The translations under genes and the position numbers were made by a program. Positions 1 to 25,407 of a DNA stretch of 64,000 nucleotides are shown piece after piece (positions within the stretch are counted from its first letter, which is position 1; the number at the start of each line of letters is the position of its first letter). The notes under the pieces are model-generated. The model searched no databases. It saw only the letters and a program-made list of their open reading frames with translations, and was not told the origin of the DNA. The DNA comes from an uncultured Anaerolinea sp. (GTDB lineage Bacteria > Chloroflexota > Anaerolineae > JAAEKA01), in NCBI GenBank assembly GCA_964626845.1, contig CAZVGR010000007.1, positions 4,820-68,819 on the forward strand, in the 5' to 3' direction.

Positions 1-578
1 TGATCTCCTGCACGCTGGTGGCCTATGGTTTCTCACGCTTCGACTTTCCCGGCCGTGATTTCCTGTTCATCGTGCTGATCGCCACCATCTTCCTGCCAGC
101 CTTCGTCACCGTTATCCCCACCTACACCTTCTTCCAGCGCATCGGCTGGGTGGGCACCTGGCTGCCGCTGATCGTGCCAACCTTCTTCGCCAACGCCTTC
201 GACGTCTTCTTACTGCGCCAGTATTTCATGACCATCCCGCGCGAGATGGACGAGGCGGCCATGATCGACGGCGCCAGCCGCTTCCGCGTGCTGACGTCGA
301 TTCTGCTGCCCCAGTCCTACCCGGTGCTGCTGGCCGTCACCGTCTTCCACATCGTCTACGCCTGGAACGACTTCTTCGGCCCGCTGATCTACCTCTCCAC
401 CAACCGCGCGGCCTGGCCGGTCTCTGTGGCGCTGAACACCTTCAACGGCATCTACGGCCAGAAGCCGCAGTTGATCCAGGCCGGCGCGCTGATGACGCTA
501 ATCCTGCCGCTGCTGCTGTTCATCTTCGCCCAGCGCTTCTTCGTGCAGGGGATTGTGATTACGGGAGTGGATAAGTAG
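1..578 (+). CDS. ABC sugar-transporter permease, C-terminal part (5' end outside window)
   Basis: ORF is open to the window edge. It carries the permease EAA-type motif 'DEAAMIDGASRFRVL'. It clearly parallels the C-terminus of permease 39221..40300 (by eye). Confidence 0.85.
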   Translation, partial: ISCTLVAYGFSRFDFPGRDFLFIVLIATIFLPAFVTVIPTYTFFQRIGWVGTWLPLIVPTFFANAFDVFLLRQYFMTIPREMDEAAMIDGASRFRVLTSILLPQSYPVLLAVTVFHIVYAWNDFFGPLIYLSTNRAAWPVSVALNTFNGIYGQKPQLIQAGALMTLILPLLLFIFAQRFFVQGIVITGVDK

Positions 579-628
579 ACGGGTAGATTGGTGATTGGTA
601 GATGGGTAGGTTTCGGGCCTGTTCAGGA

Positions 629-687
629 CCCCACCTTGGAAAGGTGGGGCTTCGTCGGCTGGCAAGCTCCACACTTCGAGTGTGGAG
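629..687. repeat. Two adjacent short REP-like hairpins after the permease stop
   Basis: CCCCACCTT-GGAA-AAGGTGGGG (629-649) and CTCCACACT-TCG-AGTGTGGAG (667-687). They are preceded by a TTGGTGA/TTGGTAGA-type heptamer run at 585-612. Confidence 0.5.
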
Positions 688-765
688 TGCTGCCATGCTA
701 ACGGATACTCCGGCGGCGTTGAGGGTTAGGCGGCATCCAACTGGACAAGACGATTCGAGGCAACT

Positions 766-2085
766 ATGAAAGTAGCAGTCATTGGCGGCGGATCGAGCTA
801 TACGCCGGAGCTGGTCAAGGGCTTTCTTGATCGGGTTGACACGTTCCCACTAACCGAGCTGTGGCTGGTGGACATCGACCCGCAGCGGCTGGAAATCGTG
901 GGCGGCTTTGCGCAGCGCATGGTAGCGGCCCAGGGCTCGCCCTTCGCCGTGTACCTGACTACCGACTGCCGCGCGGGCGTGGCCGGCGCCAGCTACGTCA
1001 CCACCCAGTTGCGCGTCGGCGGCATGGCCGCGCGGCGCAACGACGAGTACCTGGGTAAACGCCACGGCCTGATCGGCCAGGAGACCACCGGCGTGGGCGG
1101 CCTGGCCAAGGCCCTGCGCACCATCCCGGTGGTGCTGGACATTGCAGCCGACATGGCCGAGCTGGCGCCGGGCGCGCCGCTGGTCAACTTCACCAACCCG
1201 GCCGGCCTGGTCACCGAGGCGCTGGCCCGCTATGCACCCGCCACGCCGGCCATCGGCGTCTGCAACGTGCCGATCACGGCCAAGATGGGCATCCTCGACC
1301 TGCTCCAGCGCCGTACGGGCGAGTCCATCGCGCCGGAGCGGGCCGAGCTGAAGACCCTGGGCCTGAACCACCTCTCCTGGCACCGCGGCTTCACCGTGGA
1401 CGGCGAGGATGTCTGGCCAACGGTCATCGAGGGCACGCTGGCCGAGTTGCGGGAGAGCGATCACCCGGCCTGGGATCCGGCGCTGATCGAGACGCTGCAG
1501 ATGTTGCCCAACTACTACCTGTCCTACTTCTACACCACAGCCAAGAAGCTGGCCGAGCAGGACAAGTGGCCGCCCTCGCGCGCCGAGACGGTGATGCAGG
1601 TGGAAGCGGACCTGCTGACGGAGTACGCCGATCCCAACCGCCACGAGCCGCCGGCCGACCTGATGAAGCGCGGCGGCGCCTGGTACTCCACCCTGGCCAC
1701 GCAGTTGCTCAACGCCCACTACAACGACCCTTCGTCGGGCTCAGGGCAGCGCCTGGGCGAGACGCACATCGTCAACGTGCCGCACGGCGGGGCCGTGCCC
1801 GGCTGGCCGGCCGACTGGGTGCTGGAGCTGCCCGCGCGCGTCAGCCGCGCCGGCGTGGAGCCGCTGCCGGCCGAGCCGCTGCCGCCGGTCTGCTTCGGCC
1901 TGCTGGCCGCGGTCAAGTCCTACGAGCTGCTGACGGTCGAGGCTGCTGTCCACGGCGACCGCACCGCTCTCTACCAGGCGCTGCTGGCCCACCCCCTCGG
2001 CCCGGCCGCCGACCAGATCCCGGCCGTAATGGATGATCTGCTGGAGACGAATCGGGCCTATTTGCCGCGCTTTGTACGGGCATGA
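766..2085 (+). CDS. Glycoside hydrolase family 4 (6-phospho-beta-glucosidase / ChbF-CelF-like, NAD-dependent)
   Basis: N-terminus 'MKVAVIGGGSSYTPELVKGF' is the GH4 Rossmann signature. The length of 439 aa is typical. Confidence 0.85.
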   Translation: MKVAVIGGGSSYTPELVKGFLDRVDTFPLTELWLVDIDPQRLEIVGGFAQRMVAAQGSPFAVYLTTDCRAGVAGASYVTTQLRVGGMAARRNDEYLGKRHGLIGQETTGVGGLAKALRTIPVVLDIAADMAELAPGAPLVNFTNPAGLVTEALARYAPATPAIGVCNVPITAKMGILDLLQRRTGESIAPERAELKTLGLNHLSWHRGFTVDGEDVWPTVIEGTLAELRESDHPAWDPALIETLQMLPNYYLSYFYTTAKKLAEQDKWPPSRAETVMQVEADLLTEYADPNRHEPPADLMKRGGAWYSTLATQLLNAHYNDPSSGSGQRLGETHIVNVPHGGAVPGWPADWVLELPARVSRAGVEPLPAEPLPPVCFGLLAAVKSYELLTVEAAVHGDRTALYQALLAHPLGPAADQIPAVMDDLLETNRAYLPRFVRA

Positions 2086-3054
2086 ATGGCGGCGAACAGA
2101 CTCGTTAACGCATCGAATCGCCCATTCGCCGCCATTCATGCCCCTACGGTAACGACGATGAACCCCATATTGCGAAAAATCGGTTTTGCCTCCACCGACC
2201 GCGTCGTCATCCTGCACGCCGACGACATCGGCAGCAGCCAGGGCACGGTGGCGGCCTACGTCGATCTGGTTGAGGCCGGCGCCATGTCCTCGGCCGCGAC
2301 CATGGTCCCGTGTCCCTGGTTCCCGGCGGCTGCGGCTTTCTGCCGGCAACACCGCGACGACCCGCGCATCGATATGGGCGTGCATCTGACGCTGAACTGC
2401 GAGTGGAGCGCCTACCGCTGGGGGCCGATCTCGACGCGCAATCCGGCCAGCGGGCTGCTGGACGAGGAAGGCTATTTCCATCGCCGCGAGCCGGCTGCGC
2501 AGACAGAGGCCGATCTCGGCGCCGTGGAACGCGAGCTGAGCGCCCAGATCGACCGGGCGCTGGCGGCCGGCATCGACGTGACGCACATCGACACCCACAT
2601 GCTGACCCTCTTCCACCCGCGCCTGCTGCCTATCTACCTGCGGTTAAGCCAGCGCTATCGCCTGCCAGCCTTCCTGCTGCGGCCGGACGCCGAGCAGCTT
2701 CACCGCTGGGGCTACGGCCTGGACGACGCGCAAGAGGTGGCTGCCCTGGTGCGCCAGGCCGAGGCCGCCGGTCTGCCGCTCTTCGACCACGCCGACGTCA
2801 TGTCGCTGGACCGGCACGAGCAGCGACTGGAGGAGGCTGTCGAGCGGCTGACGCAGGCGCCGCCCGGCCTGACCTACTTTCTGTTCCACCCGGCCATCGA
2901 CACCCCCGAGCTGCGCGCCTTCGCCCCCGACTGGCGCAGCCGCGTGGCCGACTACGAGCTGTTCACCAGCGACGCCTGGCGCCAGGCTGTGCGAGAGGCG
3001 GGCGTACAGGTGGTCGGCTGGCGGGCGATTAGGAACGTGATGCGTAACGAGTAA
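2086..3054 (+). CDS. chbG: YdjC/ChbG-family carbohydrate (chito-oligosaccharide) deacetylase
   Basis: 'VVILHADDIGSSQG' is the YdjC-family N-terminal metal-binding motif. The ATG abuts the GH4 stop. An alternative start at 2158 (MNPILRK) is possible. Confidence 0.75.
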   Translation: MAANRLVNASNRPFAAIHAPTVTTMNPILRKIGFASTDRVVILHADDIGSSQGTVAAYVDLVEAGAMSSAATMVPCPWFPAAAAFCRQHRDDPRIDMGVHLTLNCEWSAYRWGPISTRNPASGLLDEEGYFHRREPAAQTEADLGAVERELSAQIDRALAAGIDVTHIDTHMLTLFHPRLLPIYLRLSQRYRLPAFLLRPDAEQLHRWGYGLDDAQEVAALVRQAEAAGLPLFDHADVMSLDRHEQRLEEAVERLTQAPPGLTYFLFHPAIDTPELRAFAPDWRSRVADYELFTSDAWRQAVREAGVQVVGWRAIRNVMRNE

Positions 3055-3115
3055 TGCGTAACCCGGAAGAATCGTCGCTGGCGAGCAGTTACGCATTACG
3101 CATTACGTGTTACCC
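3037..3115. repeat. Inverted array of tandem heptamers (TAATGCG / ACGCATT units) overlapping the chbG stop codon
   Basis: Left arm is GTGATGCGTAACGAGTAATGCGTAACCC (3037-3064). Right arm is GTTACGCATTACGCATTACGTGTTACCC (3088-3115). The arms are imperfectly complementary. Confidence 0.7.
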
Positions 3116-3150
3116 GACTCCAGTCACAAGATCACAGTCTTCTCCCAGTC

Positions 3151-4137
3151 ATGAACTACTACCTCGGCATCGACATCGGCGCCACCAAGAGCCATGCCCT
3201 CATCGCGGACGAGCACGGCTGCGCGGCCGGCTTTGGCCAGGGTGGGCCGGGCAACCATGAGGTCGTCGGCTACGAAGGCCTGACGGCGACGCTGCAAGCG
3301 ATCACCGGCCAGGCTCTGGCTGACGCCGGCATCCGCCGCGAGCAGATCGCAGGCGCGGGCTTTGGCGTGGCCGGCTACGATTGGCCGTCGGAGCTGGCGC
3401 CGACGCTGGAGGCCATCGGGACGCTGGGCCTGAGGGCGCCGCTGGAGGTGGTCAACGACACCATCATCGGCCTGGTGGCCGGCGCAGAGGCCGGCTGGGG
3501 CGTGGCCGTGATCGCCGGCACCAGCAACAACTGCTGGGGCTGGGACGCACAGCACCGCATCGGCCGGGTGACGGGCAACGGCGGCATGTTCGGCGAGCAC
3601 GGCGGCTCCGGCGAGCTGGTGCAGGAGGCCGTCGCCGCTGTGGCCAAGGCATGGACCCGGCGCGGCCCGCCCACCACGTTGACAGAGGCCTTCTGCCGGC
3701 TGGTGGGCGCATCCTCCGACGCGGACCTGCTGGAGGGACTGAGCCAGGGCTGGTACGACATCGGCGCGGCGGCTGCTCCGCTGGTCTTTCAGACGGCCGA
3801 GGCCGGCGACCCGGTGGCGCTGGCTGTGGTGCGCTGGGCCGCGGCGGAACTGGCCAGCCTGGCCAACGGCGTGATCCGCCAACTCCACCTGGAAGATCAG
3901 GCTTTCGATGTGGTGCTGGTGGGCAGCATGTACAACGGTGGGCCGTTGCTGTTGGAGCCGATGCAAGCTGCGGTGCAGGCTGTGGCGCCCGGCGCGCGCT
4001 TCGTCAGGCTGACTGTCCCGCCGGTGGTGGGCGCAGTGCTGCTGGGCATGCAGGCGGCTGGTCTGGAAGCGCGCGGCCTGCGACCGAACCTCATTTCCTC
4101 AACACAAAACCTGATGGCAGAAAGACAAATCCCATGA
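3151..4137 (+). CDS. N-acetylglucosamine kinase (BadF/BadG/BcrA/BcrD ATPase family)
   Basis: 'YYLGIDIGATKSHALI' is an ASKHA phosphate-1 motif. 'VNDTIIGLVAG' and 'VIAGTSNNCWG' are also present. The context is a GlcNAc/chitobiose locus. Confidence 0.8.
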   Translation: MNYYLGIDIGATKSHALIADEHGCAAGFGQGGPGNHEVVGYEGLTATLQAITGQALADAGIRREQIAGAGFGVAGYDWPSELAPTLEAIGTLGLRAPLEVVNDTIIGLVAGAEAGWGVAVIAGTSNNCWGWDAQHRIGRVTGNGGMFGEHGGSGELVQEAVAAVAKAWTRRGPPTTLTEAFCRLVGASSDADLLEGLSQGWYDIGAAAAPLVFQTAEAGDPVALAVVRWAAAELASLANGVIRQLHLEDQAFDVVLVGSMYNGGPLLLEPMQAAVQAVAPGARFVRLTVPPVVGAVLLGMQAAGLEARGLRPNLISSTQNLMAERQIP

Positions 4138-6740
4138 ACTACGGCTATTTCGACGATGCGGCCCGCGAGTACGTCATCACCCGGCCCGACACGCCGCTGC
4201 CCTGGATCAACTACCTGGGCAGCGAGGCCTACTTCGGCCTGATCTCCAATACCGCCGGCGGCTACAGCTTCTACCGCGACGCGCGGCTGCGCCGCATCAC
4301 CCGCTACCGCTACAACAACGTCCCCTTCGACGCAGGCGGCCGTTACCTCTACCTGCGCGACGACGCCAGCGGCCAGTTCTGGTCGCCTTCCTGGATGCCG
4401 ACCCGCACGCCCCTGGACGCCTACACTTGCCGCCACGGCATGGGCTACACCATCATCAGCTCGCAGGCGCACGGCATCGAGGCCAGCACGCTGTACTTTG
4501 TGCCGCTGGGCGCCAACCTGGAGATTTGGCGCACGCGCGTGACCAACCGGCGCAGCGAGCCAGCCGGGCTGTCCCTGTTCTCGGCCGTGGAGTTCAACCT
4601 GTGGGACGCCTGGGACGACCAGACCAACTTCCAGCGCAACTTCAACACCGGCGAGGTCGAGGTCGACGGCGGCGTCATCTACCACAAGACCGAGTACCGC
4701 GAGCGACGGGATCATTTCGCGTACTTCGCGTGTTCGGCCGCTCTTAGGACTGACAGTCCTGCTCCTGCGACGGACGATGTCGACACGTCGAGAGAGAGTC
4801 AACCGGTCGACCAGGACTGTCAGTCCTCTCCAACGTTCGTCGGCTTCGACACCCAGCGCGAGGCCTTCCTCGGCGCCTACCGCGGCTGGGACAATCCCAT
4901 CGCCGTCGAGCGCGGCCAGGCCGGCAACTCGGTCGCCCACGGCTGGTCGCCCATCGGCTCGCACCACGTGCGACTCAGCTTGCAACCGGGCGAGACCGCT
5001 GAGGTCATCTTCGTGCTGGGCTACCACGAGAACCCGGCGGACGACAAGTTCGATCCGCCCGGCCTGCGGCAGACCATCAACAAGCGCGCCGTGCTGCCCC
5101 TCATCCAGCGCCATCTCCAGCCGGACACCGTGGAGGCCGAGCTGGCCGCGCTGCGCAGCCGCTGGGATGACCTGTTGAGCATCTTCACCGTGCAGACGCC
5201 CGACGAGCACGTCAACCGCATGGTCAACATCTGGAACGCCTACCAGGTGATGGTCACCTTCAACCTGTCGCGCTCGGCGTCGTTCTTCGAGTCCGGCGTG
5301 GGCCGCGGTATGGGCTTCCGCGACTCCAACCAGGACCTGCTGGGCTTCGTGCAGATGGCGCCGGCGCGCGCCAGGGAGCGCCTGCTGGACCTGACCGCGA
5401 CGCAGCTTGAGAACGGCGGCGCGTACCATCAGTACCAGCCGCTGACCAAGCGCGGCAACGACGCGGTGGGCAGCGGCTTCAACGACGACCCGCTCTGGCT
5501 GGTGCTGGCCGCGGCCGCCTACCTCAAGGAGACCGGCGACTGGTCGATCCTGAGCGAGCCGGTGGTCTACGAGAACCGGCCCGGCAGCGAGCAGCCGCTG
5601 GCCGACCACCTGCAGCGCAGCATGCAGTACATCCTGGACCGCCTGGGACCCCACGGCCTGCCGCTGATCGGCCGGGCCGACTGGAACGACTGCCTCAATC
5701 TCAACTGCTTCTCCGAGACGCCCGGCGAGCCCTTCCAAACCACCGAGAACCGCGGCGAAGGTAAGATCGCCGAGTCAGTCTTCATCGCTGGCCAGTTCGT
5801 CCTCGCGGCCAAAGAGATGGCGGGCATTGCCGGGCAAGTTGCAGGTGGCAAGTTGCAGGTGGCAGGTCAGGCTATGGATGACCTGCGTGCAACCTGCAAC
5901 CTGCAACCTGCAACCTTTTACTTGCAACTTGCAGGGCAGATGGAAGCCGCGGTGCGGGCGCACGGCTGGGACGGCGCGTGGTTCCTGCGGGCCTACGACG
6001 CGCTGGGCGGCAAGGTCGGTTCGAGGGAGTGCGACGAAGGGCAGATCTTCATCGAGCCGCAGGGCATGTGCGTCATGGCCGGCATCGGCCTGGACCTCCC
6101 CGGCGGCCTGGCCGGGCAGGCGTTGGCCTCGGTGCAGCAGCATCTGGCCAGCGAGCACGGCGTCGTCCTGCTCCAGCCCGCTTACACCCGCTATCACCTG
6201 GAGCTGGGCGAGATCACCTCCTACCCGCCCGGCTACAAGGAGAACGCCAGCATCTTCTGCCACACCAACCCCTGGATCATGATTGCCGAGGCCATGCTGG
6301 GCCACGGGGAGCAGGCGCTGGACTATTACCACCGCATCTGCCCATCGGCCCGGGAGGCGATCAGCGACGTGCACCGCAGCGAGCCCTACGTCTACGCTCA
6401 GACCATCGCCGGCAAGGACGCGCCTAGCTTCGGCGAGGCCAAGAACTCGTGGCTGACCGGCACGGCGGCCTGGAACTACGTGGCCATCACCCAGTGGATC
6501 CTGGGCATCCGGCCCAGCCACGACGGCCTGCGCATTGCGCCGGTGATCCCGGCCAACTGGCCGGGCTTCAGCGCCACCCGCCAGTTCCGCGGCGTCACCT
6601 ATCACATCGACGTGCGCCGGACCGGGCCGGGCAACGCCGTGGCGCTGATGGTGGATGGACGACCGGTAGCGGGTGATGTCGTGCCATTGCCGCGCGCGGG
6701 GCAAACGGTTGTGCGCGTGCAGGCAATGGTAGGCGGGTGA
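4134..6740 (+). CDS. GH94 disaccharide phosphorylase (cellobiose / N,N'-diacetylchitobiose phosphorylase type)
   Basis: Starts 'MNYGYFDDAAREYVITRPDTPLPWINYLG'. Carries motifs 'GFRDSNQDLLG', 'GRADWNDCLNL', 'FCHTNPW' and 'NSWLTGTAAW'. Its ATGA overlaps the stop of the upstream kinase. The longer track ORF from 3381 is a frame artefact. Confidence 0.9.
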   Translation: MNYGYFDDAAREYVITRPDTPLPWINYLGSEAYFGLISNTAGGYSFYRDARLRRITRYRYNNVPFDAGGRYLYLRDDASGQFWSPSWMPTRTPLDAYTCRHGMGYTIISSQAHGIEASTLYFVPLGANLEIWRTRVTNRRSEPAGLSLFSAVEFNLWDAWDDQTNFQRNFNTGEVEVDGGVIYHKTEYRERRDHFAYFACSAALRTDSPAPATDDVDTSRESQPVDQDCQSSPTFVGFDTQREAFLGAYRGWDNPIAVERGQAGNSVAHGWSPIGSHHVRLSLQPGETAEVIFVLGYHENPADDKFDPPGLRQTINKRAVLPLIQRHLQPDTVEAELAALRSRWDDLLSIFTVQTPDEHVNRMVNIWNAYQVMVTFNLSRSASFFESGVGRGMGFRDSNQDLLGFVQMAPARARERLLDLTATQLENGGAYHQYQPLTKRGNDAVGSGFNDDPLWLVLAAAAYLKETGDWSILSEPVVYENRPGSEQPLADHLQRSMQYILDRLGPHGLPLIGRADWNDCLNLNCFSETPGEPFQTTENRGEGKIAESVFIAGQFVLAAKEMAGIAGQVAGGKLQVAGQAMDDLRATCNLQPATFYLQLAGQMEAAVRAHGWDGAWFLRAYDALGGKVGSRECDEGQIFIEPQGMCVMAGIGLDLPGGLAGQALASVQQHLASEHGVVLLQPAYTRYHLELGEITSYPPGYKENASIFCHTNPWIMIAEAMLGHGEQALDYYHRICPSAREAISDVHRSEPYVYAQTIAGKDAPSFGEAKNSWLTGTAAWNYVAITQWILGIRPSHDGLRIAPVIPANWPGFSATRQFRGVTYHIDVRRTGPGNAVALMVDGRPVAGDVVPLPRAGQTVVRVQAMVGG
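4746..4827. repeat. Palindrome-flanked small element lying in frame inside the GH94 gene
   Basis: AGGACTGACAGTCCT (4746-4760) and AGGACTGTCAGTCCT (4813-4827) flank 52 nt. The same termini are found at 10436-10518. Confidence 0.8.
5835..5935. repeat. Intragenic inverted heptamer array (GCAGGTG / CAACCTG units) inside the GH94 gene
   Basis: Left arm is CAAGTTGCAGGTGGCAAGTTGCAGGTGGCAGGTCA (5835-5869). Right arm is TGACCTGCGTGCAACCTGCAACCTGCAACCTGCAACC (5879-5915), followed by TTTTACTTGCAACTTGCAGG. Confidence 0.75.
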
Positions 6741-6752
6741 TGGCGCGCCGGA

Positions 6753-6907
6753 GATACCACAGCGGATACAGAATAGCGGATGACGTCGGGAATACCACAA
6801 CGAATGAAAACAACGAATGACGAACAGTGTGCTCTCATCATAGGGACCGGCGAGCCTGCGTGCAGTCCTCTCCTCCCCATTCGCTGTTCTTCATCCGCTG
6901 TGATACC
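6753..6907. repeat. Intergenic inverted short-unit repeat array (CAGCGGAT / ACGAATGA units)
   Basis: Left region is GATACCACAGCGGATACAGAATAGCGGATGACG...AACGAATGAAAACAACGAATGACGAACAGTG. Right arm is CATTCGCTGTTCTTCATCCGCTGTGATACC (6878-6907). Confidence 0.6.
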
Positions 6908-6934
6908 CCCTACCCCACCCACCACACCACTCCC

Positions 6935-8845
6935 ATGAAACGCACACTACTCGCCCTACTTACCGTCCTCCTACTAGCAGCGTGCAGCAACGCAATCACG
7001 CCTGCTGCGCCGCCTGCTGCCAGTCCACCGGCTGTTCCCACTGCCAGCATTGACGAGCGCGTTGCCACCCTGCTGGCCCAGATGACCCTGGCCGAGAAGA
7101 TCGGCCAGATGACCCAGGTGGAGAAGGGCAGCATCCAACCGCGCGACGTGACCCGCTACTTCATCGGCTCGGTGCTCAGCGGCGGCGGCGGCTCGCCGCC
7201 CAGCAACACGCCTGAGGACTGGCTGGCCATGGTCGGCGACTACCAGCAGGCCGCGCTGGCCACGCGGCTGGGCATCCCGCTGCTCTATGGCGTCGATGCC
7301 GTGCACGGCCACGCGGCCGTGGTCGGCGCGACCGTCTTTCCGCACAATATCGGCCTGGGCGCGGCTGACGACCCGGAGCTGATGCGGCAGATCGGGCGGG
7401 CCACCGCGCAGGAGATGGCTGCCACCGGCATCCGCTGGAACTTCGCGCCGGTGGTGGCCGTGCCGCAGGACGTGCGCTGGGGCCGCACCTACGAGAGTTT
7501 TGGCGAGGACCCGGCCCTGGTCAGCCGGCTGGCTGCGCCCTACATCGAAGGGCTGCAAAATGACGCGGGCGGCCAGCGCTTCGGCGATCCGGCCACCGTC
7601 GTCGCCACGCCCAAGCACTTTGTGGCCGACGGCGGCACAGTCTATGGCAGCTCGACCACCGAGAACATGGGCGTGCGCTACCTGCTGGACCAGGGCGACG
7701 CCCAAATCGACGAGGCGACGCTGCGCCGCATGCACCTGCCGCCGTACCAGGCCGCCGTCGACGCCGGCGCGGCCAGCGTCATGGTTTCATTCAGCAGCGT
7801 CAACGGCGTCAAGATGCACGCCAACCGCGACCTGCTCACCGGCGTGCTGCGCGACGAGCTGGGCTTCGAGGGCTTCGTCGTCTCCGACTGGCAGGGCATC
7901 GACCAGATTCCCGGCGAGTATTATTCCGATGTGGTGACCGCGATCAACGCCGGCATCGACATGGTCATGGTGCCCTACGACTACAAGGGCTTCATCGACA
8001 CGCTGACCGAGGCCATCGAAAAGGGCGATGTGCCGATGGAGCGCATCGACGAGGCGGTGCGGCGCATCCTGACCGTCAAGGCCGATCTGGGCCTGTTCGA
8101 CGGCGATCCTATGCAGCCCGGCGCGCCGCTGGAGGTGGTGGGATCAGCGGAGCACCGTGCGCTGGCCCGCCAGGCCGTGCGCCAGTCGTTGGTGCTGCTG
8201 AAGAATACCCAGAACGCGCTGCCGCTGATCGAGGACACGCCGCTGCTCTACGTCGGCGGGGTGGCGGCCGACGACATCGGCATCCAGATCGGCGGCTGGT
8301 CGACGCAGTGGCAGGGCCAGGCCGGCGACATCACCGACGGCGCGACGATCCTGGAGGGCATCCGTGAGGTCAGCCTGCCCGGCTCCAGCGTCATCTACGA
8401 CGCCGCCGGCCGTTTCGACCGCTTCACCAACGCCCAGGGAGGCCAGCTACTGGCCGACGCGGCCATCGCCGTGGTGGCCGAACGCCCCTACGCCGAGGGG
8501 GTCGGCGACTCGGCCGACCTGGCGCTGCCGCCGGACGACCTGGCCATGGTGCAGCGCATGCGCGACAGTTCGAAGCGGCTGGTGGTGATCGTGCTGGCTG
8601 GCCGGCCGGTGGACATCAGCGAGCTGCTGCCGCTGGCCGATGCGCTGCTGGTGGCCTGGCTGCCGGGCAGCGAGGGGGCTGGCGTGGCCGACGCGCTGTT
8701 CGGCCATGCGCCCTTCAGCGGCACCCTCCCCTTCACCTGGCCGCGCTCGGTCGATCAGTTGCCCTTTGACTTCACCGCGCTGCCGGCCGATGGACCGGAT
8801 GCGCCGCTCTTTGCCGCCGGTTTCGGCCTGACCACTGAGCCATGA
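6935..8845 (+). CDS. GH3 beta-glucosidase / exo-beta-glucanase-type lipoprotein
   Basis: Lipoprotein signal 'MKRTLLALLTVLLLAACS'. GH3 motifs 'GVDAVHGH', 'KHFVADGGT' and 'FVVSDWQGIDQI' are present. The track ORF start at 6827 lies inside the repeat region and is rejected. Confidence 0.88.
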   Translation: MKRTLLALLTVLLLAACSNAITPAAPPAASPPAVPTASIDERVATLLAQMTLAEKIGQMTQVEKGSIQPRDVTRYFIGSVLSGGGGSPPSNTPEDWLAMVGDYQQAALATRLGIPLLYGVDAVHGHAAVVGATVFPHNIGLGAADDPELMRQIGRATAQEMAATGIRWNFAPVVAVPQDVRWGRTYESFGEDPALVSRLAAPYIEGLQNDAGGQRFGDPATVVATPKHFVADGGTVYGSSTTENMGVRYLLDQGDAQIDEATLRRMHLPPYQAAVDAGAASVMVSFSSVNGVKMHANRDLLTGVLRDELGFEGFVVSDWQGIDQIPGEYYSDVVTAINAGIDMVMVPYDYKGFIDTLTEAIEKGDVPMERIDEAVRRILTVKADLGLFDGDPMQPGAPLEVVGSAEHRALARQAVRQSLVLLKNTQNALPLIEDTPLLYVGGVAADDIGIQIGGWSTQWQGQAGDITDGATILEGIREVSLPGSSVIYDAAGRFDRFTNAQGGQLLADAAIAVVAERPYAEGVGDSADLALPPDDLAMVQRMRDSSKRLVVIVLAGRPVDISELLPLADALLVAWLPGSEGAGVADALFGHAPFSGTLPFTWPRSVDQLPFDFTALPADGPDAPLFAAGFGLTTEP

Positions 8846-10443
8846 CCTGTCTGCGCTGGCCGGCCGTCGCAACTGCGCTTTTCCTCTTTATTGCACTGGC
8901 AGCCGGTTGTATGCGCGCTGAGCTTGCACCGCCTACGCCAACTGCGCCATCTACTGAAGCCACGAAAGCACCAGCCATGAATCCAATCATTCCCCTGCCA
9001 GTCTCAGTGACCGAAACCGGCGCTGCGTTTGCCCTGATCGGCGCTGCGCCGATTGTAGTCGATGCCGACGACGCCGAGTTGGCCGCCGTCGGCGCCTATC
9101 TGGCCGAATGGCTGGCCGCGGCGACCGGGATTGCTGCGTCTGTACTGGTCGGCGACATGGAGCCCGCCGGCTCCATCCGCCTGACCCTCGCTGGCGCGGA
9201 TCCGGCGCTGGGCGACGAAGGCTATGAGCTAGCGGTGACGTCCGACGGCGTGACGATCAAGGCCAACCGGCCGGCTGGCGTCTTCTACGGCGTCCAGACC
9301 CTGCGTCAACTGCTGCCGGTTGAGATGGAGAGCGGCGCAGTCAAGCTCGGACGATGGACGATCCCCGCCGCCGTAATCCGCGACGCGCCGCGCTTCGCCT
9401 GGCGCGGCATGATGCTGGACGTGGCACGCCACTTCCCACCCGGCGGCGTCGAGGACGTCCAGCGGCTGATCGATCTGATGGCGCTCTACAAGCTGAACCG
9501 GCTGCACCTGCACCTGACCGACGACCAGGGCTGGCGGCTGATGATCGAGTCGTGGCCCCGGCTGGCCGAGGTCGGCGGCACTGACGCGGCCGTGGACGGC
9601 GACCCCGGCGGCTACTACACCCAGGCCCAGTACGCTGAACTGGTGGCCTACGCCGCCAGCCGCTACATCGACATCGTGCCGGAGATCGACCTGCCCGGCC
9701 ACACCAACGCCGCGCTGGCCGCCTATGCTGAGCTGAACTGCGACGGCGTGGCGAGGGAGCCGTACACCGGCATCGAGGTTGGTTTCAGCTCGCTGTGCAT
9801 CGACAAGGAGATCACCTACCAATTCGTCGACGACGTGCTGCGCGAGCTGGCTGCGCTGACGCCGGGGCCGTACCTCCACGTGGGCGGCGACGAGGCCCAC
9901 AGCACGCCCGACGCCGACTATGAGCGTTTCATGGCCCGCGTGCAGGAGATCGTCCGCTCGCACGGCAAGCAGATGCTGGCCTGGGAAGAGGCCGCGCGCA
10001 TCGAGCTGGCGCCTGGCTCGGCCGTGCAGCACTGGCACAGCGAGATGGCCGCCCGCGCCGCAGCGCAGGGCGCGCAGGTCATCATGTCGCCCTCGGCGCA
10101 CGCCTACCTGGACATGAAGTACGACGACTCGACGGCGTTGGGCCTGAACTGGGCCGGCAACATCAGCGTCGAGAAAGCCTATAGCTGGGACCCCGCCACC
10201 GTGCAGCCCGGCATCCCGGAGGAGGCCATCCTGGGCGTCGAGGCGCCGCTGTGGACCGAGACCGTGCGCACCCTGGACGACCTGGAGTATCTCGTCTTCC
10301 CCCGCCTGCTGGGCATCGCCGAGATCGGCTGGTCGCCGGCCGCGGGCAGATCGTGGGACGAGTACCGCCAGCGCCTGGCCGGCCACGCGGCGCGGCTGGA
10401 GGCGCTGGGCGTGAACTTCTACCGGGGGTGGACCGAGGACTGA
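8842..10443 (+). CDS. GH20 beta-N-acetylhexosaminidase (lipoprotein)
   Basis: Motifs 'RFAWRGMMLDVARHF', 'HLHLTDDQGWR' and 'HVGGDEA'. Signal 'ALFLFIALAAGC'. ATGA overlaps the GH3 stop. Confidence 0.9.
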   Translation: MTCLRWPAVATALFLFIALAAGCMRAELAPPTPTAPSTEATKAPAMNPIIPLPVSVTETGAAFALIGAAPIVVDADDAELAAVGAYLAEWLAAATGIAASVLVGDMEPAGSIRLTLAGADPALGDEGYELAVTSDGVTIKANRPAGVFYGVQTLRQLLPVEMESGAVKLGRWTIPAAVIRDAPRFAWRGMMLDVARHFPPGGVEDVQRLIDLMALYKLNRLHLHLTDDQGWRLMIESWPRLAEVGGTDAAVDGDPGGYYTQAQYAELVAYAASRYIDIVPEIDLPGHTNAALAAYAELNCDGVAREPYTGIEVGFSSLCIDKEITYQFVDDVLRELAALTPGPYLHVGGDEAHSTPDADYERFMARVQEIVRSHGKQMLAWEEAARIELAPGSAVQHWHSEMAARAAAQGAQVIMSPSAHAYLDMKYDDSTALGLNWAGNISVEKAYSWDPATVQPGIPEEAILGVEAPLWTETVRTLDDLEYLVFPRLLGIAEIGWSPAAGRSWDEYRQRLAGHAARLEALGVNFYRGWTED

Positions 10444-10518
10444 CAGTCCTGGTCCACCGGCAAACCATCTCGCCGCGCCGAGACCTGCTCAACAAACGAA
10501 TTCAGGACTGTCAGTCCT
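10436..10518. repeat. Second copy of the AGGACTGNCAGTCCT-flanked element; contains the GH20 stop codon
   Basis: AGGACTGACAGTCCT (10436-10450; the TGA at 10441-10443 is the GH20 stop) and AGGACTGTCAGTCCT (10504-10518) flank 53 nt. Confidence 0.8.
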
Positions 10519-10535
10519 GCGAGTTGGAGACACCG

Positions 10536-10883
10536 ATGGCAACCAAAATCGACATGATCGGCATCTTCGTCAACGACCTGCCCCGCATGGTGGCGTTCTA
10601 TCGTGACGTCCTGGGCTTCGCGACCGAGTGGGACGGCCAGGGGCCGTACGCCGAGTTCAAGCACGAGGGCGTGCGCTTCTCGATGTACGAGCGGGCGCAA
10701 CTGCCCGGCCTGCTGGGCCAGCCTCCGAGCTTTCCCAGCGGCCTCAACGGCACGTTCGAGCTGGCTATCGATCTGCCCACGTCGGCTGACGCCGACGCCA
10801 TGTTCGCCGCGATCGTCCGTCCGCGAGAGCAAGCGCACCGGAACGATTTGCCAAATCGTTCTACAACCGAGTTGCGTGCATGA
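10536..10883 (+). CDS. VOC/glyoxalase-family protein (C-terminus atypical)
   Basis: 'IDMIGIFVNDLPRMVAFYRDVLGF' is typical of the glyoxalase/bleomycin-resistance fold. The last ~20 aa look unlike the family. A 9-bp hairpin, GAACGATTT-GCC-AAATCGTTC, sits in the 3' end. Confidence 0.6.
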   Translation: MATKIDMIGIFVNDLPRMVAFYRDVLGFATEWDGQGPYAEFKHEGVRFSMYERAQLPGLLGQPPSFPSGLNGTFELAIDLPTSADADAMFAAIVRPREQAHRNDLPNRSTTELRA

Positions 10884-10901
10884 CGTGATCTGGAGCGACC
10901 C

Positions 10902-12248
10902 ATGAAACGCCACATCCTTCTGTTGACCACAGCGTTGTTTCTGCTGGCTGCCTGTTATCCACCGTCCGCGCCGCAGCAGCCGGATTCCGTTGCGCCGGAT
11001 GCGGTCGAGGCCGTTCCCGCGACGCCCGCGCCTGGCGTGCTGGTCGTCGATCCGTCCATCGACCTGGGTCCCATCAGCCCCTACCTCTACGGCACCAACT
11101 ATGGGCCGATGCACGCCGTGCCCATCGAGATGATGCCGGACATGGTCGCATCGCGCTTCACGGCGCTGCGCTGGCCGGGCGGGGCGTGGACCGACGAGGT
11201 GGATATGCAGCCTTTCCAGCTCGACCAGTTCGTCTGGTTCTACCAGCAGTTGGGCGCGCTGCCCACGGTCAGCGTGCGGCTGTTCGGCGGCAAGCCGGAG
11301 ACCGCGGCTGATCTGGTGCGCTATGCCAACCTGGAGATGGGCTACGGCATCGAGTACTGGAGCATCGGCAACGAGCCGACGCTGTTCGAGGAACAAAAGA
11401 GGGTACCTTACGACACCGAACGTTTCAACCGCGAGTGGCGCGCCATTGCCGAGGCCATGAAGGCGATCGATCCCAGCATCAAGCTGCTGGGGCCGGAGCT
11501 GCACCAGTGGAACCGCGGCCTGGCCTCCACGCCCAAGGACGCGGCCGGCCGCGACTGGATGACTGAGTTCTTGCAGGCCAACGGCGACCTGGTAGACGTG
11601 GTGACGGTGCATCGCTATCCGTATTGGAGCGCGACCAACGAGCCGGCCAGCTTCGAGCAGATGCAGGCCTACGCCGCGGCCATGCCCCATGAGATCGCCT
11701 ACCTGCGCAGCCTGATCCAGGAGATCACCGGCCGCGACCTGCCCATCGCCGTCACCGAGCTGAACTCGACGCCCACCAGCGTCATGGGCCAGCCGGCCAG
11801 CCCCGACTCGCACTTCAACGCCATCTGGTACGCCGACGTGTTGGGCCGGCTGATGAGCGAGGACGTGTGGATGGTCAACCAGTGGGTCATCTCCCAGCGC
11901 AGCACCGGGCTGGGGCTGATCAACGGCTTCACCATCCGGCCGACGCTGTACACCTTCCAGATGTACAAGCACTTCGGCGACCAGCAGGTGCATGCCGCCT
12001 CAGGCGCGCCAGGCGTGACGGTCTACGCTGCGCGGCGGGACGACGGCGCGCTGACGGTGATGGCCATCAACCTGGGCGAGGCCGGGCAGACCGTCACCAT
12101 CGATCTGGCCGGCGTCTCGCCGACCGAGGCCGAGATATGGCTGCTGGACAAGGATCACAGCGCCGAGAGCCTGGGTGTGCAGCCGTGGCCGGCTGACGGC
12201 CAGATGACGCTGCCCGCGCAGTCGGTGACGTTGTACGTGGTGCGATAA
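10902..12248 (+). CDS. Secreted lipoprotein glycoside hydrolase, clan GH-A (beta/alpha)8 fold, family not assigned
   Basis: Signal 'LLLTTALFLLAACY'. Motifs 'LRWPGGAWTD', 'YWSIGNEP' (acid/base-type NEP motif) and 'VTELNS' (nucleophile-type). Confidence 0.65.
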   Translation: MKRHILLLTTALFLLAACYPPSAPQQPDSVAPDAVEAVPATPAPGVLVVDPSIDLGPISPYLYGTNYGPMHAVPIEMMPDMVASRFTALRWPGGAWTDEVDMQPFQLDQFVWFYQQLGALPTVSVRLFGGKPETAADLVRYANLEMGYGIEYWSIGNEPTLFEEQKRVPYDTERFNREWRAIAEAMKAIDPSIKLLGPELHQWNRGLASTPKDAAGRDWMTEFLQANGDLVDVVTVHRYPYWSATNEPASFEQMQAYAAAMPHEIAYLRSLIQEITGRDLPIAVTELNSTPTSVMGQPASPDSHFNAIWYADVLGRLMSEDVWMVNQWVISQRSTGLGLINGFTIRPTLYTFQMYKHFGDQQVHAASGAPGVTVYAARRDDGALTVMAINLGEAGQTVTIDLAGVSPTEAEIWLLDKDHSAESLGVQPWPADGQMTLPAQSVTLYVVR

Positions 12249-12302
12249 CCCAATGAATGCACCACCGGCGTCTTGAATGTGAAGCCCTCCCTCATGTGAG
12301 AT

Positions 12303-12423
12303 CGCCGGGGGATGAATCCCACCGGCTACAAAACTGCGCCGGATCAATCCGGCTTGACCGGCGCACAACCTAGCCCCGTTGACGGGGCGCCGCTGAATAG
12401 CCGGTGGGATTGATCCCCCGGCG
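12303..12423. repeat. Nested palindromic REP-like element (26-bp outer stem enclosing two small hairpins)
   Basis: CGCCGGGGGATGAATCCCACCGGCTA (12303-12328) pairs with TAGCCGGTGGGATTGATCCCCCGGCG (12398-12423). The inner hairpins are CCGGATCAATCCGG and GCCCCGTTGACGGGGC. Confidence 0.7.
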
Positions 12424-12493
12424 GTTGCCGCTGGCGCATTGATTTCATAATTGGTCATATCCCAATCCATGGTGCAAGGCTTGAGGAGATTCC

Positions 12494-14902: not shown

Positions 14903-14942
14903 GTCCGGCTATTGGGAACCATCCCGGAGGGACCAGCCGGAC
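14903..14942. repeat. GTCCGGCT...AGCCGGAC hairpin after the GH94-2 stop
   Basis: 8-bp arms at 14903-14910 and 14935-14942. The same arm sequence forms a hairpin at 27862-27880. Confidence 0.4.
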
Positions 14943-14986
14943 GCTACGCACACCGGCGAACACGCCTGTCGCGTTGCCGCCGTGAC

Positions 14987-15505
14987 TTACGGTGTAGTCG
15001 GCAGAGGGATCTGCCGCCTGGTGGAAACAGCCTTGGCGACTGCCAGCAGGACGAACAGGCTAATCGGTATGCCAAGAATCACGTAAGCCCAGGTGAAGTA
15101 GGGCAGCGCCTCAGTGCGAATCATGGTGACGAGATCGGCGCCCGGAGCCAGGAACCACCTCAAGGTCGAAGCGATCGATCCGGGAAATGCTCCCAGGACA
15201 ACCATCGTTCCTGCCAGGATCAGCAGCCGCTCGCCCACCGCTGCGGCGATGCCGAGGATGCTCACTCGCAGTGTGTCGCCCAGTCGGAAGCAGCCCAGCA
15301 CAAGTCCTCCCGCCACATAGGGAACGACCAGCAGAGCGGCAGCCAACAAGAAAGCTGATCGCGGATCCACACCGATCTCGGGCGCATAGGAACCGTTGAG
15401 AGGACTGCGCCAACGGGCCTGGACAGCGAGCAGCGTGATGATGTAGCTCCAGATCACGGTCAGGAAGTAGAGCACTGACATGAGAAGGAAGGAGCGGGTT
15501 TTCAT
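14987..15505 (-). CDS. Hypothetical multi-pass membrane protein
   Basis: 172-aa ORF with about 4-5 hydrophobic segments. It lies 11 nt downstream of 15517..15873 on the same strand, in the lower-GC region. Confidence 0.6.
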   Translation of the reverse strand: MKTRSFLLMSVLYFLTVIWSYIITLLAVQARWRSPLNGSYAPEIGVDPRSAFLLAAALLVVPYVAGGLVLGCFRLGDTLRVSILGIAAAVGERLLILAGTMVVLGAFPGSIASTLRWFLAPGADLVTMIRTEALPYFTWAYVILGIPISLFVLLAVAKAVSTRRQIPLPTTP

Positions 15506-15516
15506 TGACTTGACAA

Positions 15517-15873
15517 TTATGGTGCGGGGAATTCGAGAATCTCGCTGCTGATTCGTTGACGAAACGACGCGTTATCTGTATTGTCCATGTACGGATAAGC
15601 ATAGACATATTGGATGCCATCAGCTTCTTGAACTGTCCAATGCAAGACCTTGTCACCAAATTCCTGGATCAGCAATTCATGGACATGTTTGCGAATTCCT
15701 TCTCCCATCTCTTCATGCAGGGCAATGACGTTGTAACCACCATCGCTCTTTTGTACAATCTCCCACGGCTGGAGGGGTCCTTGTTCCCCGTCCTGTGCTG
15801 ACGCCATGGCAGAGACGAACAGCATGCTCAACAGAGCAAGCACGATCAAGAACCCAATGCCTCGCTTCGACAT
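15517..15873 (-). CDS. Hypothetical small secreted protein
   Basis: Start 'MSKRGIGFLIVLALLSMLFVSAMASAQ' (signal peptide) is preceded by GGAGG. The track ORF start at 15924 runs into the conserved upstream element and is rejected. Confidence 0.6.
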   Translation of the reverse strand: MSKRGIGFLIVLALLSMLFVSAMASAQDGEQGPLQPWEIVQKSDGGYNVIALHEEMGEGIRKHVHELLIQEFGDKVLHWTVQEADGIQYVYAYPYMDNTDNASFRQRISSEILEFPAP

Positions 15874-15905
15874 GGTGAAACCTCCTAATGCCGCAAAACT
15901 CGTGC

Positions 15906-22539: not shown

Positions 22540-25407
<2,868 letters not shown>

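Follow-up and report, generated by a model that had tools for sequence, protein, structure and literature searches.

REP sequences and BIMEs are extragenic palindromes at gene ends in operons, where REPs stabilise the upstream mRNA, and Rickettsia palindromic elements (RPEs) and other gene-inserting MITEs are hairpin-forming, in-frame inserts that add a tolerated surface segment to the protein. STRR sequences are tandem repeats, mostly of 7 bp, located in intergenic and intercistronic positions in filamentous cyanobacteria; some form hairpins, as between hupS and hupL, with suggested roles in transcript stability and translational coupling (PMC2670836). The TAACTGA heptamer repeats of Beggiatoaceae, cyanobacteria and Bacteroidetes comprise 169 direct sets and one inverted set (MacGregor 2015, PMC4679880), and (GATAGRA)n heptamer satellites are present in Chloroflexus aurantiacus (PMC6749651). 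Hairpin arms arise, become homogeneous and lengthen through template switching (PMC8794818; PMC13100816). In the glycoside-hydrolase (cip-cel) operon, stem-loops between cistrons fix transcript stoichiometry (PMC4423207).

The window analysed here is a 64,000-nucleotide stretch of DNA from an uncultured Anaerolinea sp., for which a preliminary description had proposed at least five loci featuring tandem copies of a short unit followed by copies of its complement. Sequence reading, Tandem Repeats Finder and an inverted-repeat search revealed tandem units on one side and the complement on the other side at all five loci. Four of these are strong tandem-armed hairpins, while the fifth, at 6750–6910, has a like design but is weak. 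The elements are located between genes of a sugar-utilisation cluster, except for one that lies in frame inside an enzyme gene:

3037–3113, plus strand: inverted heptamer arrays in the YdjC(ChbG)|sugar-kinase spacer (dG −33.3 kcal/mol, z −3.6, RNAfold)
5828–5938, plus strand: in-frame inverted arrays in the GH94 phosphorylase gene, which spans 4134–6740 (dG −65.5 kcal/mol, z −6.0, RNAfold)
6750–6910, plus strand: composite element in the GH94|GH3 spacer (z −2.1, weak, RNAfold)
25419–25495, plus strand: inverted decamer arrays, 12 nt past the GH18 chitinase stop codon (dG −45.6 kcal/mol, z −4.3, RNAfold)
29052–29130, plus strand: inverted 9-nt arrays in the NagA|SIS spacer (dG −33.7 kcal/mol, z −4.2, RNAfold)

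Unit periods in these elements are 7, 7/14, 9, 10 and 13/14. Paired arrays of this class form a 25–40-bp stem with periodic mismatches and a loop of 6–30 nt, longer in composites. The tandem-armed elements of the window share no unit, loop or flanks, and neither Tandem Repeats Finder nor the inverted-repeat search detected a sequence family linking the five. The class is real, and its members have an architecture in common rather than a single repeated sequence; the preliminary description was right to set it apart from the classical REP family. Like REPs and BIMEs, the elements are gene-end extragenic palindromes inside operons. In contrast, REPs are one conserved imperfect palindrome in hundreds of copies, whereas here the sequence varies per locus and the arms are internally repetitive; moreover, no RAYT was found among the scanned products of the window (30 of about 48).

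A strict scan, for an exact 6-mer repeated at a period of 6–15 whose reverse complement is also tandem and at most 150 nt away, identified 4 loci in the window, whereas 200 dinucleotide-preserving shuffles yielded 0.1 on average and 3 at most. When shuffling was restricted to spacers, 3 real loci stood against 0.0, and the structures are thus more frequent than in shuffled spacer sequence, as had been anticipated. In mirror, complement and direct controls, matches overlapped the same elements or consisted of one unrelated match. Chance origin was rejected on the shuffles of both the whole window and the spacers. An assembly artefact was likewise rejected, as independent assemblies show the elements; at the 3037 element, six independent short-read contigs of this organism match the window exactly, with no strain polymorphism. 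An Rfam search of the whole window at gathering thresholds gave no match, and a promoter and terminator consensus scan of positions 1–20000 gave none at the elements and a total count not above that of shuffles. The elements resemble intrinsic terminators, and the U-tract-less “I-shaped” hairpins proposed in high-G+C bacteria, in being stable stem-loops a few nucleotides past stop codons. They differ in having no T-run or U-tract in the 20 nt downstream of each element, 25–40-bp stems with periodic mismatches and loops of 8–31 nt, and in lying mostly within operons. Canonical intrinsic termination, one of the roles initially envisaged, does not fit the elements, as T-runs are missing and the loops are too long.

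The survey sample consisted of 1.7 Mb, comprising the window and 160 related loci (L numbers), most of it drawn from two sugar-utilisation gene clusters. The genomes nearest to that of the window are Anaerolineae/Caldilineales MAGs of Chloroflexota. At the YdjC|kinase junction of the window, GTRAYGN heptamers face GYATTAC heptamers: the 5′ arm spans 3037–3061, the loop measures 27 nt, and the 3′ arm, (TTACGCA)x2.7, spans 3089–3113. The 5′ arm corresponds to the YdjC gene end, which in L050 reads ...GCCATGCGATGA, and includes the YdjC/ChbG stop codon (TAA, 3052–3054), an overlap correctly reported in the preliminary description. A homologous element is found at the L007 junction and a remnant at L011. 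Units vary by lineage, being GTAATGC in the window and L007, CACAGAGA in L008 and CGTATTN in L019. All five spacers of at least 35 nt at this junction contain tandem arrays, and in six more distant lineages the two genes have a −4 overlap. Compared with the window, L007 has two extra GTAATCC units in one arm only, and a loop insertion, CTTCTGG, that complements CCGGAAG across the loop and looks like the product of a template-switch event. The 3′ arm (3089–3113) differs from L007 at 1 of 30 positions, compared to 35% at 4-fold-degenerate sites. As read from this alignment, such conservation indicates a sequence-level constraint, which a neutral by-product model would not predict. Upstream, a plain hairpin at 2074–2147 shows one compensatory pair relative to L007.

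In the GH94 gene, (GGCAAGTTGCAGGT)x2.3 on the 5′ side is matched by about (TGCAACC)x4.1 on the 3′ side. The element lengthens a catalytic-domain loop by 18 aa (54 nt), and the insert aligns to a gap in the solved cellobiose phosphorylase 3QDE. Inserts are present at this site in 7 of 11 GH94 orthologues, and 6 of the 7 fold into a hairpin. The insert of L009 is exactly 21 nt, i.e., three heptamers, longer than that of the window; in L008, TTCATCN units stand in place of the array and no longer form a hairpin. The 3′ arm encodes FxLxP[AS][TS][FY]Y, common to the insert-carrying lineages, and continues into a conserved YLQLA. The sole direct repeat in the flanks, GGGCA, is itself part of the outer stem. 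Inspection by eye suggests that the in-frame hairpin is kept, with matching changes in the two arms, down to 61% protein identity; RNAalifold predicted no pairs on these inserts, and MAFFT did not align the 5′ arms of six lineages. As an in-frame hairpin in a protein-coding gene, the insert is reminiscent of RPEs. However, RPEs are a conserved-sequence family, whereas the GH94 array has no sequence counterpart in the window and its 3′ arm runs on into native coding sequence. The RPE-like element of this gene is a separate one, GGACTGnCAGTCC (~82 nt), a true small hairpin family with conserved sequence, distinct from the tandem-armed elements. Since one of its copies lies in the reading frame of this GH94 gene, in-frame hairpin insertion occurs in the clade. 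Multiple conserved full-length copies, the hallmark of MITEs and RPEs, are found for the GGACTGnCAGTCC family and not for the tandem-armed hairpins.

The composite element in the GH94|GH3 spacer features a unit of ~27 nt, itself composed of two CAGCGGATN-like sub-units of 13/14 nt, in two direct copies (about 6756–6782 and 6796–6822) and one inverted copy (6878–6906). The arms are 95 nt apart, and the inverted pair covers 33 nt with 79% complementarity. L008 has a cleaner homologue (dG −72) with the same CAGCGGAT units as the window, while L010 carries unrelated ACAGGATTT/AATCCTGT arrays. In the alignment with L008, the arms are no more conserved, the whole alignable spacer being similar. Downstream of the GH18 gene, the arms are GAGGAACTCG x3.8 and AGTTCCCCN about x3–3.1; at the orthologous junction, the closest relative (L087) has another upstream gene and no hairpin, and the hairpin of L091 is a plain one. 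Within the NagA|SIS spacer, CGAATTnnn x2.7 pairs with ATTCGCGAA x2.8 in a stem in which 6–7-bp helices are set between 2x2 internal loops. Tandem-armed hairpins made of other units are found at the same junction in L089, L090, L091 and L123, for a total of five different units, and a GGACTG-family hairpin is found in L087.

Across the 1.7 Mb sample, 22 arrays have an inverted partner at a score of at least 36, compared to 1 in the mirror control. Among intergenic arrays, 47 of 234 (~20%) form inverted pairs, versus 10 in the control. The commonest intergenic period is 7 (78 of 234 arrays), which bears out the resemblance to STRRs put forward earlier, and periods of 8–14 are also common. Arrays are 2.7 times denser in non-coding sequence (234 in the ~10% that is non-coding versus 781 in the coding 90%). 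Inverted pairs are mostly intergenic (24/31, against 10% non-coding sequence, P ~1e-18), and 20 of the 24 intergenic ones sit within operons, flanked by co-directional genes. The data show a clade-wide class of STRR-kind short-tandem-repeat arrays, about one-fifth of the intergenic ones being paired with an array of complementary units.

The view that unit sequences are unrelated is correct within the window but fails at the scale of the clade, where a few heptamers turn up at several loci and in several genomes (CGTAATG in 8 arrays, CGTGAAA in 6, CAACCTG in 5, compared to at most 3 in random sets). Exact CGTAATGCGTAATG has 5 matches, versus 0.008 expected, and the TTCATC unit is found at two loci in L008. 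Heptamers recurring at unrelated loci hint at a sequence-specific factor or at array exchange, as simple local slippage would not explain them. Similarly, the association with stop codons holds in the window, where all four intergenic elements start 0–12 nt past the upstream stop codon and the elements are nearer this stop than the start codon; in the wider data set, the bias to the stop side of the spacer (10/16) is not significant. Placement at stop codons arises largely because the element is itself the spacer. At NagA|SIS and other junctions, distant relatives follow the YdjC|kinase pattern, with a 4-nt ATGA overlap and no spacer. Because stop and start codons overlap (ATGA) in distant relatives, the elements look like derived insertions that would have created the spacer. 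Relatives carry tandem-armed elements at the corresponding junctions, in most cases built from other units. Direct arrays adjoin an ATG in L009, L011, L017 and L008, with different units; start-codon positions in the survey are approximate, being derived from a crude gene caller.

The arrays resemble STRRs in several respects. Both feature tandem, mostly heptameric short units, are dispersed over many intergenic sites and concentrated in non-coding sequence, and include several unit families per clade; some arrays fold into a hairpin between co-transcribed genes, and position is kept while sequence varies by species. STRRs rely on a small set of units; here, each hairpin of the window has its own unit, and CGTAATG, CGTGAAA and CAACCTG recur across loci. 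One difference from STRRs, which concerns taxonomic range and not mechanism, is that the arrays are found in Chloroflexota of about 63% G+C and not in heterocystous or filamentous cyanobacteria. Other differences concern the units, the frequent periods of 8–14, the hairpin arrangement of ~20% of intergenic arrays, and the in-frame hairpin array kept across lineages in an enzyme gene, for which no STRR report was found in the literature searched. The inverted arrangement, initially presented as a departure from STRRs, is not one, as hairpin-forming STRRs, e.g., at hupS/hupL, had already been reported (PMC2670836). What is new is the extension of STRR-kind hairpin arrays to another phylum, Chloroflexota, hairpin-forming heptamer STRRs between cyanobacterial genes having been described before. 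TAACTGA and (GATAGRA)n repeats are also heptamer arrays in spacers, often just before start codons, in which one favoured heptamer recurs, and occur in filamentous bacteria. However, they are essentially direct repeats of one unit, whereas many units occur here and one-fifth of intergenic arrays are matched by a complementary array. STRR-like arrays in another, unrelated phylum provide a comparative system for STRR function and origin. Unit turnover, copy-number steps, a spacerless apparent ancestral state and an in-frame case are all observed, with orthologous junctions available from many genomes. In such a system, the origin of the arrays (slippage and template switching) and their function (RNA stability, translational uncoupling) would be separable.

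We see roughly even chances that the elements are local STRR-kind arrays, generated by slippage and inverted duplication, that form intercistronic stem-loops when transcribed. Local, non-transposed making of the arrays seems to have some direct comparative support, since differences of the slippage or stem-extension type are found between close relatives, at 3037 in L007 and at the GH94 site in L009 and L008. The seed would be a 7–14-nt unit of native sequence, such as the end of the YdjC gene at 3037 or the coding sequence for Y-L-Q-L-A at 5828. Replication slippage would amplify this unit, and the opposite arm would derive from inverted duplication, i.e., intrastrand template switching. Thereafter, the two arms would gain or lose copies independently through slippage, and variant units would sweep through the array. 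Arrays would persist only where insertions are tolerated, either between cistrons, wedging apart once-overlapping ATGA junctions, or in permissive surface loops, with the length staying a multiple of 3. Template-switch hairpins also gain a perfect arm in one step from the opposite strand; they represent, however, a mutational process rather than an element family, and were described in rRNA, miRNA and promoters, there not combined with tandem-unit slippage (Monttinen & Loytynoja 2022, PMC8794818; yeast promoter inverted repeats, PMC13100816). In polycistronic sugar-utilisation mRNAs, the very stable intercistronic stem-loop could uncouple the translation of neighbouring cistrons. Instead of working as a canonical intrinsic terminator, it could also be a 3′ exonuclease barrier or processing site that sets the ratios of mRNA segments. 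The effect of the stem-loop would be tunable through copy-number slippage. These RNA roles, whether uncoupling, exonuclease barrier or processing, are proposed with low confidence.

Alternatively, and less probably, selection may keep the hairpins as intercistronic mRNA structures, i.e., U-tract-less terminators or attenuators, 3′-end stabilisers, RNase sites or translational-coupling devices, tandem arms being the easiest route to a long stem or to register-tolerant folding. This tentative reading is consistent with the folding data. At five orthologous junctions, 17 of 29 spacers of at least 35 nt fold with z < −3, as do 11 of 32 spacers of the window compared to 1 of 60 coding controls, and the hairpin recurs at the same junctions despite complete sequence turnover. 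The conservation of the 3′ arm at 3089–3113, the compensatory pair at 2074–2147 and the matching two-arm changes of the GH94 hairpin also argue for selection, as do the precedents of STRR hairpins, for which roles in transcript stability or translational coupling were put forward (PMC2670836), and of the stem-loops setting cistron stoichiometry in the cip-cel operon (PMC4423207). However, stem mismatches include 44 G·U and 62 A·C pairs, with no sense-strand G·U bias, and sense folds are not favoured, as the antisense fold is more stable in 19 of 29 elements (a weak trend, p 0.045, which matches the mild A+C excess of the strand). The elements lack a U-tract, decayed hairpins are seen in L008 (GH94 site) and L011 (kinase junction), and copy-number changes in one arm are uncompensated on the other. 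The hairpin also appears to be dispensable, because the apparent ancestral junctions are 4-nt overlaps with no hairpin.

Local generation and retention may also be combined. In a broader scenario, which we regard as rather unlikely, non-transposon slippage and template switching would make arrays from native sequence, perhaps helped by a heptamer-preferring factor common to cyanobacterial STRRs and Beggiatoaceae TAACTGA repeats; the arrays would pry genes apart, enter enzymes in frame and be kept as copy-number-tunable regulators. If true, this would define a class of self-organising regulatory elements, neither mobile nor designed.

It is improbable that the elements are non-autonomous mobile elements, similar to MITEs, REPs or RPEs and with internally repetitive arms, inserting at gene boundaries and in frame. 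The presence of CGTAATG, CAACCTG and CGTGAAA units at different junctions of different genomes fits mobility, as does the GGACTGnCAGTCC hairpin family with its in-frame copy; moreover, the L008 element differs from that of the window and L007 at the same junction at similar divergence, and looks like a replacement. However, besides the lack of any shared unit, loop or flanks in the window, elements made of CGTAATG units differ in both loop and flanks, with nothing shared beyond a short CCGGAA. Target-site duplications are not evident at the elements in comparisons that included no very close relative with an empty site, and Pfam scans of 30 of about 48 predicted products of the window revealed no transposase. 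One arm is native gene sequence, and copy-number differences correspond to whole units, as expected of slippage.

Arrays of protein-binding sites, either operator/iteron-like or single-stranded RNA sites, with the inversion reflecting a dimeric or cooperative binder, are the least probable explanation: heptamer families recur, the ATTACGC x3 arm, which lies 38 nt before the kinase ATG, shows sequence-level conservation, and the start-codon direct arrays of L009, L011, L017 and L008 resemble TAACTGA arrays, for which S1, Csp and CsrA-type binders have been suggested (PMC4679880), but five units in 30 kb would require five binders, units turn over at one junction between close relatives, and reverse-complement partners far exceed mirror partners, which points to base pairing.

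Direct arrays lacking an inverted partner, or located in coding sequence, were also identified in the window:

585–612, plus strand: direct heptamer-like array (TTGGTGA/TGGGTAG) past the ABC-permease stop codon, without inverted partner (z −0.45 for 575–660)
15955–15981, no strand assigned: direct decamer array TTTGTGATTG x2.7, without inverted partner (z −1.7)
22547–22562, plus strand: direct array (GAAACGT)x2.3 in the GH18 signal-peptide coding sequence (Tandem Repeats Finder)

The arrays at 585–612 and 15956–15975 had been regarded as half-elements. Both are indeed direct arrays, the second extending over 15955–15981, but neither forms a hairpin. A second copy of TTTGTGATTG is present at 17413–17440; both copies are in spacers of a minus-strand operon, without inverted partner. 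The unit at 22547–22562 belongs to the recurrent CGTGAAA family, the 6 arrays of which are distributed among 5 genomes and include a hairpin-forming pair in L011 at 4975–5026. Arrays of this kind break short-read assemblies and extend or interrupt predicted proteins, and therefore matter for the quality and annotation of Chloroflexota MAGs. Downstream of the 585–612 array, a plain hairpin occurs at about 626–652, and short-read contigs of the same organism start at 628, just past the array.

The window has a G+C content of ~63%, and its plus strand carries genes for chitin and beta-glucan utilisation, including those for an ABC permease, GH4, YdjC/ChbG, a BadF-type sugar kinase, GH94, GH3, GH20, a second GH94, GH18, NagA and a SIS-domain protein, among others. 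The closest genomes are Anaerolineae/Caldilineales MAGs of Chloroflexota (73-89% kinase identity). Five loci in the window carry hairpins whose arms are tandem short-repeat arrays.

Hairpin elements of the window, with single-strand folding energy and z relative to dinucleotide shuffles
3037-3113, between the YdjC and kinase genes: -33.3 kcal/mol, z -3.6
5828-5938, inside the GH94 gene: -65.5 kcal/mol, z -6.0
25419-25495: -45.6 kcal/mol, z -4.3
29052-29130, between the NagA and SIS genes: -33.7 kcal/mol, z -4.2
6750-6910, between the GH94 and GH3 genes: composite, a ~27-nt unit (two CAGCGGATN-like sub-units) present twice in direct and once in inverted orientation

In the first four, 2-4 tandem units of 7-14 nt are followed, after a gap of 8-31 nt, by 2-4 reverse-complement units. 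Both arms were recovered as arrays by Tandem Repeats Finder, and the arms were paired by an inverted-repeat search. A strict scan, requiring a 6-mer repeated at a period of 6-15 with its reverse complement also tandemly repeated within 150 nt, found 4 loci in the window versus a mean of 0.1 in 200 shuffles, and 3 versus 0.0 when spacers alone were shuffled. Chance is therefore ruled out; the observation holds up and has solid statistical support. The preliminary description, which had reported inverted tandem arrays at five or more loci, is thus borne out by four strong hairpins; the fifth shares the design but folds weakly alone (z -2.1), and its homologue in L008 (L007 and higher numbers denote loci from related genomes) is a clean hairpin of -72 kcal/mol. 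The supposed half-elements at 585-612 and 15955-15981 proved to be direct arrays only. The latter and 17413-17440 contain the decamer TTTGTGATTG (x2.7-2.8) and occupy consecutive spacers of an operon on the minus strand, whose genes encode a family-5 solute-binding protein and unknown products; these arrays may serve as an operator-like site or just be one more array family. Logan contigs assembled from short reads of this organism (L001-L006) match the window identically and have ends at 628, directly past array 585-612 (start), and at 5862, within the GH94 5' arm (stop). Short-read assemblers therefore break at these arrays, which may account for the many related MAG contigs ending near such junctions.

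The window and 160 related loci (1.7 Mb) were surveyed by aligning each Tandem Repeats Finder array locally to the reverse complement of the 160 nt beyond it, using mirror partners (reverse, not complement) as the control; transitions were scored as neutral, avoiding bias in later tests. Inverted partners were found for 22 arrays at a score of at least 36 (control, 1) and for 26 at a score of at least 32 (control, 5). Among 234 intergenic arrays, period 7 leads (78) and 47 belong to inverted pairs, versus 10 in the control. Most classifiable elements (24/31) are intergenic, although non-coding sequence makes up just 10% of bases (P ~1e-18), and flanking genes are co-directional for 20 of these 24. 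The number of elements per Mb drops with distance from the window, from 47 in the window itself to 46, 32, 13 and 5 in loci of ≥80%, 70-80%, 60-70% and <60% protein identity, respectively. Tandem-armed hairpins are a clade-wide class.

The same junction may hold different units in different lineages.

Units at three orthologous junctions
YdjC/kinase: homologous GTAATGC-type element (window, L007); remnant plus CTGCCAC array (L011); unrelated CACAGAGA/TCTCTGTG arrays in a 220-nt spacer (L008, as close as L007); CGTATTN/GAATACG (L019)
NagA/SIS: CGAATTnnn (window); CCATAGA/ATCGTCT (L089); CAAAGAC-type (L090); GCTGATG/CCATTTG (L091); ACACGGATnA (L123); hairpin from another family (L087)
GH94/GH3: common CAGCGGAT-type units (window, L008); ACAGGATTT/AATCCTGT (L010)

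In six more distant lineages, the YdjC stop and kinase start codons overlap by 4 nt (ATGA), and all five lineages with a YdjC/kinase spacer of at least 35 nt have tandem arrays in it. Likewise, the NagA/SIS, GH4/YdjC and kinase/GH94 junctions feature either an overlap or very short spacer, or a long structured one. Folds with z < -3 were obtained for 17 of 29 spacers of at least 35 nt at five orthologous junctions, and for 11/32 window spacers versus 1/60 coding controls. The comparison of junctions suggests that the elements are derived and that their insertion created the spacer. The proximity to stop codons noted in the preliminary description stands, but largely because the element itself makes up the spacer; the bias to the stop side within spacers is not significant.

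Many other window spacers hold long, near-perfect plain hairpins, unique in sequence and without a T-run (2074-2147, 12303-12423, 32254-32309, 40316-40351, 46397-46537, 52927-52972, 61035-61067 and 62928-62965). The first overlaps the stop codon of GH4 and, compared with L007, has one compensatory pair; the second is nested, with arms of 52 nt.

Differences between the window and L007, in which 35% of 4-fold-degenerate sites differ, illustrate how elements change. In the 3037 element, the 5' arm in L007 has two extra GTAATCC units, and a loop insertion in L007 (CTTCTGG) complements CCGGAAG across the loop, resulting in a longer stem. Such differences are yielded by unit slippage and intrastrand template switching (PMC8794818; PMC13100816). 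The 3' arm differs at only 1/30 positions, which indicates that one arm is under constraint. The two arms of the 29052 element are complementary in their 6-nt cores but not in the 3-nt spacers between these, and units are alike within each arm, which points to growth by within-arm duplication and not to an arm copied as a whole from its partner.

In the catalytic domain of GH94, element 5828-5938 lengthens one loop by 54 nt, in frame, and in alignment the inserted segment falls opposite a gap in the solved cellobiose phosphorylase 3QDE. The base state of 102 nt is found in L010, L011, L050 and L080. Inserts at this site (L009, +75 nt; L008, +33; L027, +42; L036, +51; L065, +36; L074, +24) fold as repetitive-armed hairpins in all but L008, in which the array is now TTCATCN and the hairpin is lost; its TTCATC unit recurs in tandem upstream of the start codon of YdjC. 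L009 and the window differ by exactly 21 nt, that is, three heptamers. The window, L027 and L065 have homologous 3' arms, which feature the heptamers [CG]AACCTG, [CG]AAYCTT and [TC]GACCTG and encode a similar peptide, FNLxPxTFY; matching complementary changes are present in the 5' arms. The outer 3' arm is the native Y-L-Q-L-A coding sequence, itself CTTGCAA x2. Three further sites of the gene hold in-frame hairpin inserts in various lineages.

At these three sites, the inserts of relatives are near-perfect hairpins of 18-81 nt, each unique in sequence (L008 3327-3374, L027 11215-11253, L036 11210-11311, L009 1721-1771, L010 11731-11796 and L011 11649-11714). At one of them, GTTGCCATCTTT/AAAGATGGCAAC is common to L009, L010 and L011, and the window has the GGACTG element in its place. 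The second GH94 paralogue (12494-14902, 802 aa), an internal control, has no insert at either hairpin site and aligns colinearly with its Pfam profile, which suggests that only one GH94 copy tolerated or acquired inserts.

Units had been described as unrelated from locus to locus, which is not fully the case. Among canonicalised heptamers, CGTAATG makes up 8 arrays, spread over at least three different junctions, and CGTGAAA makes up 6, from five genomes; there are 5 arrays of CAACCTG and 4 each of ACCTGCC and ACACCTG. Recurrence in random sets is at most 3. The CGTGAAA family includes array 22547-22562, within the GH18 signal-peptide coding sequence of the window, and exact CGTAATGCGTAATG occurs 5 times versus 0.008 expected. 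Because CGTAATG contains the overlapping stop/start motif TAATG and resembles the compact YdjC gene end of L050 (GCCATGCGATGA), it may have been seeded from coupled junctions. The CAACCTG/CACCTGC unit, found at 5888-5916 and in relatives, contains ACCTGC, a sequence recognised by type IIS restriction enzymes, among them BspMI and AarI. A link between heptamer families and restriction-modification sites would have a parallel in cyanobacterial HIP1.

No T-run follows any element, a consensus scan of 1-20000 gave no terminator-like match at the elements there, and no Rfam family was found. On the sense strand, stems show no excess of G·U (44) over A·C (62), and the sense fold is more stable in 10 elements, the antisense fold in 19; the stems therefore lack the classic mark that selection on a sense-strand RNA helix would leave. 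In contrast, the recurrence of hairpins at the same junctions, the long-lived in-frame hairpin and the single conserved arm argue against pure neutrality. Local origin, in which elements would arise by slippage and inverted duplication, is therefore held with more confidence than function. Most likely, by analogy, the elements would act as intercistronic stem-loops uncoupling neighbour cistrons and stabilising or processing mRNA segments, as in the cip-cel operon (PMC4423207) and in proposals for cyanobacterial STRR hairpins (PMC2670836).

STRR heptamer arrays, which include hupS/hupL intergenic hairpins, are the closest known kind; TAACTGA repeats and the (GATAGRA)n satellites of Chloroflexus are related heptamer arrays. 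No conserved palindrome or full-length sequence links the elements of the window and no U-tract follows them, which sets them apart from REP/BIME, intrinsic terminators and MITEs; they are interpretable as a variant of a known, poorly understood kind of element. A literature search found no paper on such hairpin arrays in Chloroflexota. What appears to be new is the phylum, a measured proportion of arrays that are arranged as hairpins, evidence of elements splitting formerly overlapping genes, and an in-frame hairpin array that several lineages have kept.

A ~82-nt family looks MITE/REP/RPE-like and separate from the tandem-armed hairpins.

Copies of the ~82-nt family
Window: 4746-4827, 10436-10518, 20057-20118
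Relatives: L007 11596-11677; L008 3018-3099; L011 17469-17654; L087 ~7170-7250

Its sequence is truly conserved, interior included, and is bounded by the palindromes AGGACTGACAGTCCT and AGGACTGTCAGTCCT, which have 6 matches in the window versus 0.26 expected. One copy lies in frame in the GH94 supersandwich domain, another overlaps the stop codon of GH20, and a regulator gene has a short form upstream.
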